A DNA stretch of 64,000 bases, from assembly GCA_963719505.1 (NCBI GenBank), contig CAVRCF010000001.1, forward strand, positions 1 to 64,000, read 5' to 3'. Made by a program: the position numbers. The stretch's first letter is position 1, and each line of letters opens with the position of its first letter. Below are positions 42,001 through 45,000 of this stretch, one piece after another. This DNA is from Halobacteriovoraceae bacterium (GTDB lineage Bacteria > Bdellovibrionota > Bacteriovoracia > Bacteriovoracales > Bacteriovoracaceae).

Positions 42001-45000
42001 TTAACAGAAATTCTTGGCTGTCTTCCATAATCTGGGATGATTTGAAAATCTGCACCAGCAAAGAGTCTATTTTCTCTTTCACCATCAGTAATTCCAAAAC
42101 CTGCGTCAAAGTTTACCGCTTCATTAAGTCTGTTGAAATATCTAGCTTCGATCCCAGCTCCCGCACCATTAGTGTTGTAACTTGTGAACTCAGTTGTAAT
42201 AACTTGTTTTCTTATTTCGAAAGGGTGAGTTGAAACACCGACTGTAGTTGCTGTTGCAGCGCCTGTAATCAAAAGTGCGCCTAATGCCATGCCTAATCTT
42301 CTCATAATAACCTCTTCTCCCACTGGGAAATGTTCTCAATTGTTTGCTAGTCATAGTCTAAAGAAATCGCCATGGGACGTCAATTTTAGAATGGATTTTA
42401 GTCGGGATTGCCGCACAGCAAAGTCTTCAATTTCCTTCAAGTTTAGGTTGACGACTAAGGGGGCTATAATCTATAACACTAATACTGAAATTTCTGCGGT
42501 GGGCGTAGTTCAGTTGGTAGAGCAGCAGATTGTGATTCTGTTTGTCGTGGGTTCGAGCCCCATCGTCCACCCCATTTTTCAGCATCATTTTATCGAATGC
42601 TTTCAACCCAAATCCGCGAGAATCTTTTCCACTGCTCTGACAATATCCCAAATCCGCGAGAATCTTTTCCACTGCTCTGACAATATTTTTTTCATTCGGC
42701 TCATTTTGAGTTCGCTGGTCCATAGAGGTCGCATAGTTGCGCCTTTTTTTTTGCTCTAGCTCTTTTTTTTCAATTCGGCTCATTTTAAACCCAAATCCGC
42801 GAGAATCTTTTCCACTGCTCTGACAATATTTTTTTCATTCGGCTCATTTTGAGTTCGCTGGTCCATAGAGGTCGCATAGTTGCGCCTTTTTTTTTGCTCT
42901 AGCTCTTTTTTTTCAATTCGGCTCATTTTAAATCGCTATCTTTTTTTCCAACATCAAAATTTTCCGCGAGTAAACTCAAAACTCTCTTCAAAAAGCTCCC
43001 AGGTACTTTTTCATCTACTTATTTTGTCGCCAAAACAGCCATTCCCAAACCTTTATTCAAAAGTTGTCCCCTACTTCATTTCCATTCTCTATTTTCCTCC
43101 GATAAAAACACAACCTTTCTTCTCGAGCGTATGTTTTAACTACTCAAAGACGTACTCAAGGCGCACGTCTGCCTTGGTGGCAGTAGTTCAAGCTGGTTTA
43201 CAATATTCATTTTTCAAAGAACACGCGCTCAGGTTTGTAAACTAAACTTAAACAATAAATTTTTCATAATCCTGTTAAGCACCACCTCCTGTTTAAAGTA
43301 AATTCTTAACTTTAGTTTCCGAGCACTTCGGATCAACTGCCCCGCAATATTTATGACATGACTTCTAACACTCTTTGAAAAATATCCAAGCTGTTTTACA
43401 CGAATCCTTTCTCCACTTTTTCTATCTCGAACTGTTCGCCACTTCTCTTCCATGCAAAAAGAAATTACTCTCGTTAAATTATGTGCAAACGTTCCTACTA
43501 ATCCAAAAATTTTATTCGCTCTCAAACGACGACAAGGAAAGTTTAAAAAATCAAAGCCGTACTTTTGCTCTCGAATATAGCTCTCTGCTGTTGCTCTATC
43601 TTTATAAAACTCAAAAACTTCTTCATTGTTCATCTCTGAAAAACCAATGTTTGTTATGATAGAATAATGTCTATAGTCGTGTTCTTCAGGATTGTAATTC
43701 TTAAAGAGGTCTCGAGCCTCATTGATATCATCTACGCTCTTTCGGGCTCTAATAAAAACGACTCGCATCTCCCCTAAGCTTTTAATTGGGTAATGAGACA
43801 TCGCTATTTCACACTCTTTTGACTTGAAAAACTCAAGTTCTGTCTTCTCCCAATTCAACATATTTCGATTCTTCTTTCTAACATATCGACTTATATTATC
43901 CCTAAGAACTATTGCAAACTTTGCTCCTTTGGCTTGAAGAGCTTTATAAACTTCTTGCTTTCCATATGCGGAGTCTGCTCTAAACCATCTTTCTAAATGA
44001 CTTGGACAATTCTTAAAAATTTCATGCACCCAGCGCTCAGCATCTTTACCCGAATGAGTATTTCCAGGACGAAGATCGAACAAATAACTAAATCCAAATT
44101 GATCATAAGCATTTTGAGAATCAAGGCACCACATATTTTTATAGTTCCACGCCATCCCTTCCATATTTTTTCCGTAATGTTCATGAGGCGTAGAATCCAT
44201 TGAAAGAATAAACTTTATATCATCTGGAAACATCAAAGCTCTAAGCTCAAAAGTTAGCTCAACTAAAAATTCCTGTAATTTTTCAGCATGTCTATTTCCA
44301 AATGACTTTAAAAAATCACCTTGAGTCCTAGCTGCAACCTTCCCAGTAAGTTCTGCAAACAATGGATCTTTATTTGAATTATCAATATCAGAAAGACAAT
44401 CATTTCCAACAACAAACGAATAAAGTAGAGATTTAAACTTATCTAATTGAGTTGGACCTATGTTTTTCTTTTTGCGGGGCATCTTAGATTTGAGTCTTTT
44501 ATCTAGTTTTAGTTGCTTCCAGAGCTCTTCAAATAAAAATAGACCAGAATGAGAAGAGAATGTTTGAGAAGTTGATTCAATTTTGATAGTTTTGTACATG
44601 GCAGTTCTTTTGCTAAAAAGCTTTTTTGGTTTGTTTTTTTTTGTTTGGCGATAAAAAGATATCAAAACAAAAAAGCTTTTTCTTTATGCAGGGCCGTAAA
44701 AAAAACACTTTTTTTTCAATTTTTGGGTGAATTTATCAAAATGATGAAAAGCCTTATTACGACTACTTGGAACGCACGATATTAGGTATCATCGTGCGCG
44801 GTTACGTTTCAACATACTTTCAACTATTACTAATCACTTACAAACACGTTGTGAGAAACTATCTAGGTCGAAGTCTTATACCTTTCAACTCATTCCATAT
44901 TATTTCACGAATATGACTGATTTCTGACTGACCCTTGACTGACTTCTTAAAATCGAAATTGCGGATTGTTAACCTTCAATTAATTTTCTGCGGCGTTTTA

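Follow-up and report, generated by a model that had tools for sequence, protein, structure and literature searches.

Insertion behind tRNA genes by an IS1380-family element with a candidate tRNA-pairing segment in its 3' untranslated region

The insertion sequence described here belongs to the IS1380 family and lies behind tRNA genes, with a bias in position and polarity that is also seen among its relatives and with repeated hits at the same tRNA. It is very likely that these insertions are targeted. Beyond the stop codon of its transposase gene, in the 3' untranslated region, the element carries a variable segment that appears to match the 5' half of the neighbouring tRNA; this segment lies between a conserved motif and what alignments indicate to be a conserved, structured scaffold of RNA type. 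On balance, we favour nucleic-acid-guided homing by a DDE transposase, with targeting probably, if by no wide measure, effected through pairing of the IS-borne segment. The best explanation would make these elements an active clade of single-gene DDE insertion sequences in the IS1380 family, and we lean toward it. The locus lies in the window, the whole 64,000-nt stretch of DNA that was analysed (positions 1 to 64,000 of contig C1, GenBank CAVRCF010000001.1, from a Halobacteriovoraceae bacterium).

The element and its copies

The transposase matches the family's curated equivalog model NF033539 with 210 bits (cut-off 180). The alignment covers profile positions 1-416 of 419, and there is no obvious extra domain. 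It scores 130.8 bits against PF13701, and the IS4, IS701 and IS1182 models score far under their own cut-offs. The element consists of one transposase ORF only: it holds no cas genes and no Tn7-type tnsB, tnsC or tniQ. This single long ORF in 2,018 bp, the terminal inverted repeats and the short target-site duplications (4-6 bp in the IS1380 family) place it in that family. The two ends of the element, CCCAAATCCGCG... and ...GCGCGGTTACGT, have the common core AA(T)CCGCG, and those of the relatives read CCCAAATCC and (C/T)CTAAATCC. Six relatives (L126, L131, L133, L057, L142 and L154) have 5-6-bp duplications with matching inverted ends. The family assignment comes with exact ends and 5-6-bp duplications. 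As duplications were found in these six relatives and at two places in this genome, the elements have moved by true transposition. The features of the tRNA-His locus are as follows.

42499..42574 (+): tRNA-His (GTG), the target gene; ARAGORN, and Rfam RF00005 at 59.6 bits
42602..42606 (no strand): TTCAA, which the first insertion likely duplicated as its target site (left copy; right copy at 44808-44812); sequence inspection
42607..42646 (-): truncated copy of the IS end that lies 3' of the transposase gene (its first 40 nt); repeat family D2, BLAST (the match extends to 43 nt, starting at 42604)
42647..42789 (-): another truncated copy of that IS end (its first 143 nt); repeat family D1, BLAST (100% identical to 42790-42932)
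42790..44807 (-): full IS1380-family element, 2,018 bp; both ends defined by four further copies, 98.6-100% identical
42790-42798 (-): IS end 3' of the transposase gene, GGATTTGGG on the transposase-sense strand; end motif kept in relatives, 240-440 nt beyond the stop codon
43122..43127 (-): conserved box CTCGAG in the 3' untranslated region, on the 3' side of the helices; alignment A2 columns ~108-114
43148..43175 (-): two predicted interlocked, conserved helices; covariation, G·U pairs on the transposase-sense strand
43176..43202 (-): variable guide-like segment; the + strand reads like tRNA nt -1 to ~25
43203..43220 (-): conserved motif directly after the stop codon, UCUUUGAAAAAUGAAUAU here, consensus TCTTTGACAATCGAATAT; alignment A2 columns 1-17, (nearly) invariant
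43229..44665 (-): DDE transposase gene, 478 aa from TTG, or 456 aa from the ATG at 44599 (the database form); NF033539, PF13701, PF01609
44794-44807 (-): IS end 5' of the transposase gene; copy comparison

The genome contains five transposase genes at four places, and the IS is oriented alike at all four.

C1:42790-44807: copy behind tRNA-His
C3:213956-215818: copy without its first 156 nt, at the tRNA-Asp locus
C3:215810-217950: full copy at the tRNA-Asp locus, with end pieces of 7 and 114 nt ahead of it
C5:83419-85441: copy near a copy of a tRNA-Met tail
C5:1089093-1091112: copy near a short match to the tRNA-Gly-TCC tail

We calculated the gaps between these copies and their tRNAs from the coordinates, taking the outermost IS end and the 3' end of the tRNA as the limits. 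The gap is 32 nt at tRNA-His, where two stacked truncated ends precede the full element, and ~135 nt at tRNA-Asp. The C5:83419 copy lies ~137 nt behind a 48-nt copy of nt 30-77 of the tRNA-Met gene at C5:128267 (100% identical, and ~42.6 kb away from that gene). The C5:1089093 copy lies ~97 nt behind a 12-nt match, which is weak and is to the tail of tRNA-Gly-TCC, not to the Gly-GCC gene. Target-site duplications are seen around the C5:83419 copy (TACAC(A)) and around the C1 stack (TTCAA); no flanking duplication was seen at the C5:1089093 or C3 copies. A search with nhmmer found no orphan copies of the RNA region in the genome beyond the five IS copies.

This re-analysis confirms the survey's finding as to the IS1380 family, the copy map, the shared orientation, the stacked ends and the proximity to tRNAs; the survey gave 29-143 nt as the range of gaps. 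Its 2,019-bp element measures 2,018 bp at 42790-44807. The TACAC duplication that it placed at C5:83423 is the one given above. Its 8-nt tRNA-Gly end does correspond to a short match, but one of 12 nt to the Gly-TCC tail, and a weak one. Its caveat that all four loci adjoin integrated elements also stands, as mobile DNA borders every one of the four places; an IS3-family element lies near the C1 locus, at 45978-47158.

With 32 tRNA genes and one tmRNA gene in 3.69 Mb, we estimate that ~0.1% of the genome lies within 150 nt behind such a gene. Because so little of the genome is that near, two whole-tRNA hits in four places are not due to chance.

tRNA genes beside related elements

We collected 113 unique loci of related elements from 238 genomes of the order, a 185,579-species collection and metagenomes, choosing them by transposase similarity alone. 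(L046 and L137 are one place seen twice.) In the collections searched, the clade occurs only in Bacteriovoracaceae-type and Halobacteriovoraceae-type genomes. There are 35 tRNAs in 28 of the 113 loci, and every one of them is convergent with the transposase gene and on its 3' side; none is on the 5' side, despite the larger survey there (195.6 kb, versus 155.7 kb on the 3' side). The larger set thus supports the geometry far more strongly than did the 6 of 17 loci reported before. At least twelve kinds of tRNA are hit (those found comprise Cys, Ala, Met, fMet, Asp, Pro, His, Val, Leu, Arg, Glu-Lys, Phe, Gly and Ser). Measured between the tRNA end and the inferred IS end, the gap falls within 16-262 nt in 17 of 22 unique loci; one other locus has 341 nt, and the last four have 565-1334 nt. 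Also, the IS in L040 lies ~20 nt behind a copy of a tRNA-Met tail, and the IS in L139 lies 121 nt behind the 3' part of a tmRNA. Stacked end pieces occur too, beside tRNA-Arg in a relative with 36% identity (345, 267, 345 and 268 nt).

When only unique loci with a flank of 100 nt or more are counted (55 in all), a whole tRNA is present within 350 nt in 18 of them, versus ~0.3% expected from tRNA density and none (0/55) on the control strand. Two more have a partial tRNA. The remaining 35 have none, in line with the earlier caveat that many relatives' loci lack a tRNA, so tRNA targeting is not obligate. Rfam identified no other RNA gene beside the tRNA-less loci, except for the tmRNA part in L139. 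Looking up exact 10-nt tRNA tails gave four matches, versus two on the control strand, and a 28-nt tRNA-tail matrix added only L130 and L139. Tails that we had judged by eye in L049, L056, L064, L115 and L159 were supported by neither method and are not counted.

The variable segment and its scaffold

The conserved post-stop motif is followed by a variable segment in 57 distinct sequences of relatives, which are most of those where the region is readable, and in 50 sequences the segment is followed by the helices. On the + strand, helix 1 would pair AAGGC (43158-43162) with GCCTT (43171-43175), and helix 2 would pair AGACGT (43148-43153) with ACGTCT (43165-43170). As the two interlock, they may form a pseudoknot or represent two alternative folds. 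In the alignment, 90.6% of cells are paired, 6 of 10 pairs have changed on both sides, and none of 500 shuffles reaches the observed values, with the second helix having first been named by the analyst and then counted in this test. In the transposase sense, the imperfect pairs read as G·U; on the opposite strand they would be A·C, and so we assign the putative RNA to the transposase-sense strand. The fold of this copy alone is about as stable as that of a shuffled sequence (z = -0.33), and RNAalifold reports only one 4-bp helix. Rfam gives only tRNA-His a gathering score in 42300-45000. A scan for promoters found 2 promoter-like sites (6.8 expected) and 0 terminator-like sites, which we consider uninformative. 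We also asked if the conserved motif ATATTCGAATGT (+ strand) mimics a T loop, an idea that we rejected. It does not match the neighbour's T arm better than shuffled pairs do (85 versus 86.7 ± 3.5, shuffle P = 0.74), and its generic likeness to a T arm is slight (4.33, versus 3.87 for a shuffled T arm).

The + strand of the variable segment (43176-43202) resembles the acceptor 5' strand, U8-A9 and the D arm of a tRNA; as transposase-sense RNA, it would be complementary to the tRNA 5' half. Across 26 IS-tRNA pairs, the match to the neighbour over tRNA nt 1-24 sums to 205, versus 138.9 ± 11.1 for shuffled pairs, and none of 20,000 shuffles reaches it; the same is true for nt 1-12 (141 versus 105.0 ± 7.5, 0/20,000). 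Acceptor identities give 135 versus 113.3 ± 5.0 (1/20,000), and restricting the set to a single pair for each IS sequence and each tRNA kind (n = 15) gives 116 versus 80.2 ± 8.8 (1/20,000). When shuffling is confined to one amino-acid kind, the sum is 196 versus 175.0 ± 7.1 (47/20,000), and in within-kind comparisons the element's own neighbour fits better in 21 cases, worse in 7 and equally in 6. These shuffle counts overstate significance somewhat, because related sequences are partly non-independent. As examples, three tRNA-Gly genes start with GCGGG, GCGGT and GCGCG, and each facing IS has the identical five letters; a tRNA-Leu with GCCCAGT faces an IS segment with GCCCAGT.

Matches to the occupied tRNAs also rank high within a genome. 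Among the 32 tRNAs of this genome, Asp ranks 1st, and His and Met are tied for 2nd-5th (the Met gene ranked is the one whose tail copy adjoins the IS). In genome G007, with 28 tRNAs, Arg-TCT is 1st, Phe is tied for 2nd-3rd and Glu is tied for 8th-13th, or for 1st if only tRNA nt 1-12 are used. The segment is not recopied at each insertion, as the five copies here are alike in this region (five identical nhmmer hits) despite their different tRNAs, and the three loci in G007 are likewise alike beside different tRNAs.

A match was also seen in a group of distant or unplaced ends (52 versus 33.2 ± 5.9, 25/20,000), which holds five loci with an IS end that is not placeable or lies 565-1334 nt away from the tRNA, plus L132, which is included solely for want of an end motif (its tRNA is 362 nt past the stop codon). 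The match at the distant loci is compatible with DNA having been inserted later between IS and tRNA. On the other hand, the flanks of 16 tRNA-less loci do not match their own segments (7.69, versus 7.25 and 7.39 for controls); a lone high score in that set, for L158, comes from a second IS piece and not from a guide match.

The matches are imperfect, with mismatches and one-base gaps, and some neighbours fit badly (Phe at L119, Glu at L151 and L163, and His at L046). The most conserved part of the segment is a generic D-arm box, TAGCTCAGCTGGT. The segment is not a working tRNA, as the D stem is not retained as a fold. An asymmetry among the mismatches (38 wobble-compatible versus 17 of the reverse type) is of no use as a test of strand because it is confounded by the G-richness of tRNAs and by one recurrent column.

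These comparisons bear on the survey's secondary lead, a tRNA-like stretch at 43176-43199. They give it statistical support, in that the stretch tracks the neighbouring tRNA. As had been stated, Rfam is blind to it: 43086-43220 gives no match even at E-values up to 1. The statement that there is no consensus structure needs correction for the part just 3' of the stretch, where the two covarying helices are predicted.

Explanations for the association, and known systems

To explain these observations, we propose that the transposase remains associated with the 3' untranslated region of its own mRNA or with a fragment cleaved from that region. The variable segment would then pair with the tRNA 5' half, either in the nascent pre-tRNA or in the non-template DNA strand of the transcribed gene, and this pairing would tether the transpososome so that integration occurs at a nearby downstream T-N-A-A-W-like site in fixed polarity. 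The homing window would be ~16-260 bp behind the 3' end of a tRNA gene, or once a tmRNA gene; the element would land behind the terminator where one exists, with the IS end 3' of the transposase gene facing the tRNA. As insertion is behind the gene and in fixed polarity, the tRNA gene would be spared and would offer a safe landing place. We prefer a tether to a rigid ruler because the insertion distance is loose. If the tRNA is already occupied, a new copy would land within the first ~150 nt of the resident copy in the same orientation, and homologous recombination of both copies would leave a truncated end piece and one full copy. This would account for the stacks at tRNA-His (40 and 143 nt) and tRNA-Asp (7 and 114 nt), and the second tRNA-Asp copy, which starts at position 157, would be a stack in which recombination has yet to occur. 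The tRNA-less loci would reflect a second, tRNA-independent mode or later rearrangement.

More specific versions of this proposal are held more tentatively. The element may be a one-gene DDE element of the IS1380/piggyBac type with its own guide, an antisense-to-tRNA segment in a structured handle in the 3' region of its mRNA; we regard this as possible, a little short of probable. With similar reserve, the guide could pair with the tRNA 5' half, in a nascent transcript or an opened gene, and tether the transposase, and it is conceivable in about the same degree that evolution keeps the segment in step with the tRNA sequences of the host. Several findings count against guidance. The spacing between the segment match and the insertion point is not fixed (gaps to the tRNA end are 16-262 nt and longer), unlike in known RNA-guided transposons. 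Also, most loci have no tRNA (35/55), and the 16 such flanks do not match their own segments. Finally, matches are imperfect, some neighbours fit badly, the transposase has no extra domain, and the fold of the single sequence is unremarkable.

Much of this would suit homing by protein alone, which we think unlikely but far from negligible. The transposase or a bound host factor would recognise a feature common to tRNA loci (D- or T-arm DNA boxes, a transcribing or terminating RNA polymerase, or a processing enzyme), and the segment would have another job, such as antisense or tRNA-sensing control of the transposase mRNA or serving as an internal transposase binding site. The many kinds of tRNA targeted, the loose distance, the imperfect matches, the lack of an extra domain and the generic box as the most conserved part of the segment are all expected if so, and excerpts of a published account offer a precedent in Tn7 TnsD and CAST I-B (PMC11656645). 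However, a generic box does not explain the neighbour-specific acceptor letters, even within one tRNA kind, or the top ranks of occupied tRNAs within two genomes, and the placement of the segment between a conserved motif and a covarying RNA scaffold suggests a guide in a handle.

If homing is real but unrelated to the segment, then the segment could be a passive relic, a piece of tRNA that was captured once (for example, by ISEcp1-like one-ended transposition) or that is refreshed by gene conversion. IS1380-family elements can pick up flanking DNA, the D stem is not kept as a fold, and the segment is on the same strand as the neighbouring tRNA. Yet the motif and scaffold are homologous across the clade (31-77% transposase identity), which points to one origin, and the segment now resembles a dozen kinds of tRNA, including those with Cys-, Ser- and Leu-type D arms. 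Identical copies of one element beside different tRNAs argue against conversion at each locus, and a piece captured beside the old end should have been the 3' half of the tRNA, not the 5' half. We consider a relic improbable. It is more doubtful still that there is no targeting, with insertion being random and survival selective behind tRNA genes, where the orientation would shield the transposase from read-through. Equally remote is that the element rides in islands that integrate at tRNA genes, even if mobile DNA borders all four places here and 35 of 55 loci are without a tRNA. Most intergenic DNA should be as harmless, yet 18 of 55 loci are within 350 nt of a whole tRNA where ~0.3% is expected; the polarity is 35/35; nested repeat hits at one tRNA indicate recurrence rather than survival; and the ends and duplications belong to the IS itself and not to an island.

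Guided homing, the reading that we favour, has partial parallels. IS1380-family DDE transposases are related to piggyBac, and ISEcp1 has low target specificity. ISEcp1 and IS1380 share with this element one DDE gene, short imperfect terminal inverted repeats, 5-6-bp duplications and a length of ~2 kb. In the titles and abstract openings of the IS1380 literature, we saw no mention of insertion directed at tRNA genes, nor of a structured RNA containing a variable segment that resembles a target. In IS110/IS1111 (bridge or seek RNA) and in IS200/IS605 and IS607 (TnpB omega RNA), single-gene elements have a structured RNA with programmable segments beside the scaffold, which resembles the predicted structured RNA here with its variable segment beside a conserved scaffold. 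However, IS110 uses a DEDD/serine-type recombinase whose RNA reads both target and donor by near-exact short matches at the crossover site, and the TnpB RNA guides a nuclease, not a transposase, whereas here the enzyme is a DDE transposase and the imperfect match is ~70-330 bp from the insertion point.

CASTs insert at a fixed distance from the protospacer. In CAST I-F and V-K, according to excerpts of PMC11656645, a short guide borne by the transposon (a delocalized crRNA) matches a conserved homing site near a tRNA gene or glmS, and insertion is beside the gene. This element also has a short guide-like match and inserts beside the gene rather than inside it. But CASTs are multi-gene and Tn7-like and require Cas proteins, TniQ and TnsC, while this element has a lone DDE gene of the IS1380 type, lacks cas genes, bears its guide-like segment in the 3' untranslated region and inserts at a loose distance. 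Tn7 TnsD recognises the sequence of an essential conserved gene and directs insertion in one orientation to a safe site just downstream, attTn7 behind glmS (in part after excerpts of PMC11656645). There, a protein recognises one fixed site with one spacing, in contrast to the many tRNA genes and variable spacing seen here. Ty3 in yeast and TRE5-A in Dictyostelium insert beside tRNA genes generally, with biases in position and orientation, and so reach a safe haven. The IS clade may be a bacterial counterpart of this strategy, although Ty3 and TRE5-A are eukaryotic retroelements that bind polymerase III transcription factors, with enzymes and hosts unrelated to this IS. Tyrosine-integrase islands and phages are also associated with tRNA genes, but they recombine inside one specific tRNA gene and bring along a duplicate of its 3' end. 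This element instead inserts 16-260 bp outside the gene by DDE transposition, makes short duplications and has a stretch that resembles the 5' half.

Bacterial DDE insertion sequences are generally thought to choose targets by protein-DNA contacts and local DNA shape, and to our knowledge, RNA-guided transposition requires Cas proteins (CASTs) or a different class of enzyme (IS110). The clade offers comparative evidence for a guide-and-handle layout within an IS1380/piggyBac-type element. If guidance is true, then this would be a Cas-free RNA-guided DDE transposase, possibly the first to read nascent RNA instead of DNA; the known kinds would gain a compact programmable DDE integrase, and we would see how a selfish element keeps track of conserved genes in its host. 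Should guidance be false, the strict polarity and the matching segment still need a new explanation. The system is directly testable, as it involves a single gene with a single untranslated region and each genome offers ~30 candidate targets.

A separate feature of the 3' region is a small ORF behind a strong ribosome-binding-like GGAGGA. It has 8 codons (of the type M-I-F-x-I-T-G-L) in about a dozen relatives and only 4 codons in this element.

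The IS1380-family element and its copies

Behind tRNA-His, the element's terminus occurs three times in tandem:

42499-42574, plus strand: tRNA-His (GTG), the gene on the target side
42607-42646: IS end piece of 40 nt, with the first of three tandem copies of the terminus CCCAAATCC, which begins 32 nt past tRNA-His
42647-42789: IS end piece of 143 nt, with the second terminus
42790-44807: the full element, with the third terminus
43229-44665, minus strand: transposase, 478 aa from a TTG start, the one long ORF in the element

The transposase (456 aa in its database form, with an ATG start at 44599) scores 210 bits against the NCBIfam equivalog model for IS1380 (cut-off 180) and matches DDE_Tnp_1_4 in Pfam. 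The element has every family feature that we tested for and is a member of IS1380.

The genome contains five copies of the transposase, spread over four places, and at all four the IS end 3' of the transposase gene points at the 3' end of a tRNA or at a copy of one. The gap, as derived from match coordinates, is 32 nt at tRNA-His and about 135 nt at tRNA-Asp. On contig C5, the gap is about 137 nt, measured from a 48-nt stretch that exactly repeats the 3' part of tRNA-Met (C5:128267). The remaining place, about 97 nt past a 12-nt match to the tail of tRNA-Gly-TCC, is a weak case. Short duplications were found at two places (TTCAA at the stack behind tRNA-His and TACAC(A) at C5:83419).

The tRNA-Met gene (C5:128267-128343) and its 48-nt 3' copy beside the IS are about 42.6 kb apart (C5:85578-128267), as expected if this tRNA was the integration site of an island that arrived after the IS, or beside it. 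Also, an unrelated IS3-family pair lies 1.2 kb to the right of the element behind tRNA-His (45978-47158, minus strand), so the DNA behind this tRNA carries more than one IS:

46826-47158, minus strand: HTH_Tnp_1 ORF of the IS3-family pair
45978-46718, minus strand: rve integrase-core ORF of the IS3-family pair

Each of the truncated pieces begins at the exact terminus and breaks internally. The end pieces are 40 and 143 nt at tRNA-His and 7 and 114 nt at tRNA-Asp, where a second copy, without its first 156 nt, comes after the full one. Nested insertion would produce this pattern: a new copy would enter the first 150 nt or so of the resident copy in the same orientation, and homologous recombination of the nested copies would reduce them to an end piece plus one complete copy. 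At tRNA-Asp, one intermediate would still await resolution. A relative with a 36%-identical transposase has four pieces beside tRNA-Arg (345, 267, 345, and 268 nt), so repeat insertion at an occupied tRNA occurs across the clade. (The break points there, from two events, are 64 and 142 nt past that relative's own tRNA-like stretch.)

On the tRNA's strand, about 70-105 nt inside the IS end, GGTCCATAGAGGTCGCATAGTTGCGCC is followed by nine T (42858-42895, plus strand, and again at 42715-42752), and similar sequences are present at two relatives' loci (L039 and L040). A simple terminator scan did not call this stretch. It looks like an inward-facing terminator that would halt read-through from the tRNA.

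Association with tRNA genes among relatives

We chose relatives by transposase similarity alone, from 238 genomes of the same order (33 with a match), from one genome per species for 185,579 species (33 loci), and from metagenomes (69 loci), and we took 2.5-3 kb of flank per side where the contig was long enough. (L046 and L137 are one place, which is counted twice among the loci.) The loci from the one-per-species set are all labelled as Bacteriovoracaceae-like or Halobacteriovoraceae-like MAGs, except for two contigs that are probably mislabelled.

Of 113 unique loci, 28 have tRNA genes, and all 35 of these tRNAs are on the side 3' of the transposase gene and convergent with it. There were none on the 5' side, despite the larger amount of sequence surveyed there (195.6 kb vs. 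155.7 kb). By chance, about three tRNAs, in any geometry, would be expected in all of the surveyed flank (given the density of 32 per 3.69 Mb in this genome). The adjoining tRNAs are of many kinds (Cys, Ala, Met, initiator Met, Asp, Pro, His, Val, Leu, Arg, Glu-Lys, Phe, Gly, and Ser). A terminal motif, GGATTT(G/C)(G/C), which recurs in relatives 240-440 nt downstream of the stop codon, allows the IS end to be located. Among 22 unique loci, the distance from this end to the tRNA 3' end is 16-262 nt for 17, 341 nt for one, and 565-1334 nt for the other four. Where the tRNA has a terminator hairpin, the element sits beyond it. Also, six relatives have 5-6-bp duplications with matching inverted ends, so these are ordinary DDE transposition events. 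The survey's finding that the element sits just downstream of tRNAs in a fixed orientation is confirmed, and its reading as an IS that inserts there is supported and extended. We are confident that the element homes behind tRNA genes.

This homing is a strong preference or one of two modes, rather than an absolute rule. Among the 55 unique loci whose flank past the inferred end is 100 nt or longer, 35 have neither a tRNA nor a tail, 18 have a complete tRNA no more than 350 nt away, and two have a tRNA-type tail of 28 nt. (The control strand has none.) Alternatively, many of these contexts were rearranged after insertion. An Rfam search of the loci without a tRNA found no other RNA gene alongside, aside from a partial tmRNA gene in one relative, L139: the IS is 121 nt past the 3' part of this gene (L139:2092-2254) and convergent with it, as at tRNA genes. 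Only the 3' part is present because the contig end cuts the gene.

At L051 (genome G005), the IS and tRNA-Leu-CAA are 1,334 nt apart, with small ORFs in between. This tRNA and the element's variable segment share their first six letters (GCCTTG), which suggests that the intervening DNA arrived later. A further copy of this IS, L049, lacks a complete tRNA in its vicinity. Finally, the contig with L001 and L073 (487 kb) is labelled as a Verrucomicrobiae MAG, and its final 3.66 kb is 98% identical to C5:81921-85574, across the IS and both flanks. In the stretch fetched from this contig, the first 2.3 kb is unmatched in this genome, and the G+C content overall is 50% (vs. 36.8% here). This probably reflects a chimeric assembly or an end binned with the wrong genome, and not transfer between phyla.

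The conserved region past the transposase gene

Among relatives that are readable for at least 200 nt past the stop codon (57 distinct versions), most share a conserved motif and a variable segment, and a two-helix scaffold could be placed in 50 of the sequences. In the window, the parts are:

43220-43203, transposase sense: conserved motif TCTTTGACAATCGAATAT, at or just past the stop codon
43202-43176, transposase sense: variable segment (about 27-30 nt in relatives)
within 43175-43148, transposase sense: two short interlocked helices
past the helices, transposase sense: CTCGAG box

In a 32-sequence alignment, the helices are paired in 90.6% of cells, and both sides have changed in 6 of the 10 helix pairs. 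Not one of 500 shuffles reached any of the five measures, and sliding the partners out of register lowers pairing to 32-60%. Where pairing is imperfect, the transposase-sense strand has G·U (22 such cells in helix 2) and the opposite strand would have A·C, so the structured molecule is expected to be an RNA of transposase sense. Such an RNA would be the transposase mRNA's 3' untranslated region, whole or in part. We did not find a family for the region in Rfam.

The opposite strand of the variable segment resembles the start of a tRNA (positions 1 to about 25), with an acceptor-like heptamer followed by TA and then a D-arm-like TAGCTCAGCTGGT. The D stem cannot form, so the likeness is kept in sequence but not in fold. 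An RNA with the sense of the transposase gene would carry this segment as a complement of a tRNA's 5' half.

To score the likeness, we compared the first 24 nt of the nearest tRNA with the 170 nt past the IS stop codon and shuffled neighbours among loci, which cancels general tRNA-likeness. As the survey had proposed, the stretch resembles the tRNAs that it neighbours: over 26 distinct pairs, the sum is 205 (vs. 138.9 ± 11.1), which none of 20,000 shuffles attained. The signal is strong for tRNA nt 1-12 (141 vs. 105.0 ± 7.5, 0 of 20,000) and for identities in the acceptor heptamer alone (135 vs. 113.3 ± 5.0, 1 of 20,000), and it is absent from the D-stem letters alone (2,020 of 20,000). It persists with one pair per IS sequence and tRNA kind (n = 15, 116 vs. 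80.2 ± 8.8, 1 of 20,000) and with shuffles within one amino-acid kind (196 vs. 175.0 ± 7.1, 47 of 20,000). Against same-kind tRNAs of other genomes, a locus's own neighbour matched better in 21 comparisons, worse in 7, and equally in 6.

For example, three tRNA-Gly genes start with GCGGG, GCGGT, and GCGCG, and each one's IS has the identical five letters. Similarly, tRNA-Leu genes with GCCCAGT and GCCTTGG are opposite GCCCAGT and GCCTTGT, tRNA-Cys GGAGACATG is opposite GGTGACATG, and tRNA-Ser GGAGAAT is opposite GGAGAAG. Among the 32 tRNAs of this genome, Asp ranks 1st, and His and the tRNA-Met gene whose tail copy adjoins the IS are both tied for 2nd-5th. In a relative with one and the same IS at three loci (G007, 28 tRNAs), Arg-TCT ranks 1st, Phe is tied for 2nd-3rd, and Glu is tied for 8th-13th (tied for 1st on nt 1-12). 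The misfits are L119 (Phe, with a Cys- or Ser-like segment), L151 and L163 (Glu), and L046 (His). Copies of the same element beside different tRNAs are identical, so insertion does not copy the adjoining tRNA into the segment anew each time, and the likeness must precede insertion.

Proposed guided homing and its alternatives

On the RNA strand, a variable segment that matches the target is flanked by a conserved motif and a covarying handle, which is the layout of a guide. We therefore favour, by a modest degree, homing that is guided by an IS-borne segment antisense to the tRNA. The untranslated region 3' of the transposase mRNA would remain with the transposase; the variable segment would pair with the tRNA 5' half, either in the nascent pre-tRNA or in the non-template strand of the open gene; and the transposase, tethered in this way, would insert the element into a T-N-A-A-W-like site close behind the gene, always with the same polarity. 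A tether suits the variable spacing (16-262 nt) and the placement beyond terminators better than a rigid ruler would. On the other side, the matches between segment and tRNA are imperfect, 35 of 55 loci lack a tRNA, 16 flanks of such loci show no match to the element's own segment, profile comparison found no extra domain in the transposase, and the fold of the single sequence is unremarkable.

The main rival is homing by protein only, with another job for the segment, such as control by tRNA pairing, but this leaves unexplained why the acceptor-like letters follow the neighbour. If the segment were a captured or converted tRNA relic, we would not expect a scaffold of single origin to be opposite a dozen tRNA kinds, or copies at different tRNAs to be identical; both contradict that view. 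Random insertion filtered by survival, or hitch-hiking in islands, is contradicted by the polarity (35 of 35), by the nested repeat insertions, and by the duplications, which belong to the IS itself.

The element's nearest parallels in behaviour include IS110, with its bridge RNAs; Ty3 and TRE5-A, which are eukaryotic retroelements aimed at tRNA genes; and Tn7 with TnsD, which homes behind glmS. Another parallel is CAST I-F and V-K, for which PMC11656645 describes a delocalized crRNA and insertion beside tRNA or glmS genes. Unlike all of these, the element is one DDE gene of the IS1380/piggyBac lineage, without a Cas protein, and has its guide-like segment in the untranslated region 3' of the transposase gene and a loose spacing. 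A full-text literature search (judged by titles and abstract openings, outside subscription journals) found no paper on tRNA-directed IS1380 elements or on such an RNA. If the guide is real, it would be a new kind of RNA-guided DDE transposition.

The region past the stop codon has other features. A weak promoter-like site (GTGGCA, 16 nt, TACAAT; 43177-43204, plus strand) overlaps the tRNA-like stretch and faces antisense into the transposase gene. TACAAT is kept in closer relatives. The site may be meaningless, as a scan gave fewer such sites than in shuffled sequence. Also, 125-175 nt past the transposase stop, 11 relatives' loci (L052, L053, L072, L130, L139, L143, L144, L151, L154, L158, and L168) have the strong ribosome-binding-like AGGAGGAT, an ATG 6-8 nt on, and then a conserved 8-codon frame (for example, MIFAITGL, MDFVITGL, or MKFDITDS; in the window, only four codons, MEMK). 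This could be a mini-ORF or merely a conserved nucleotide motif.
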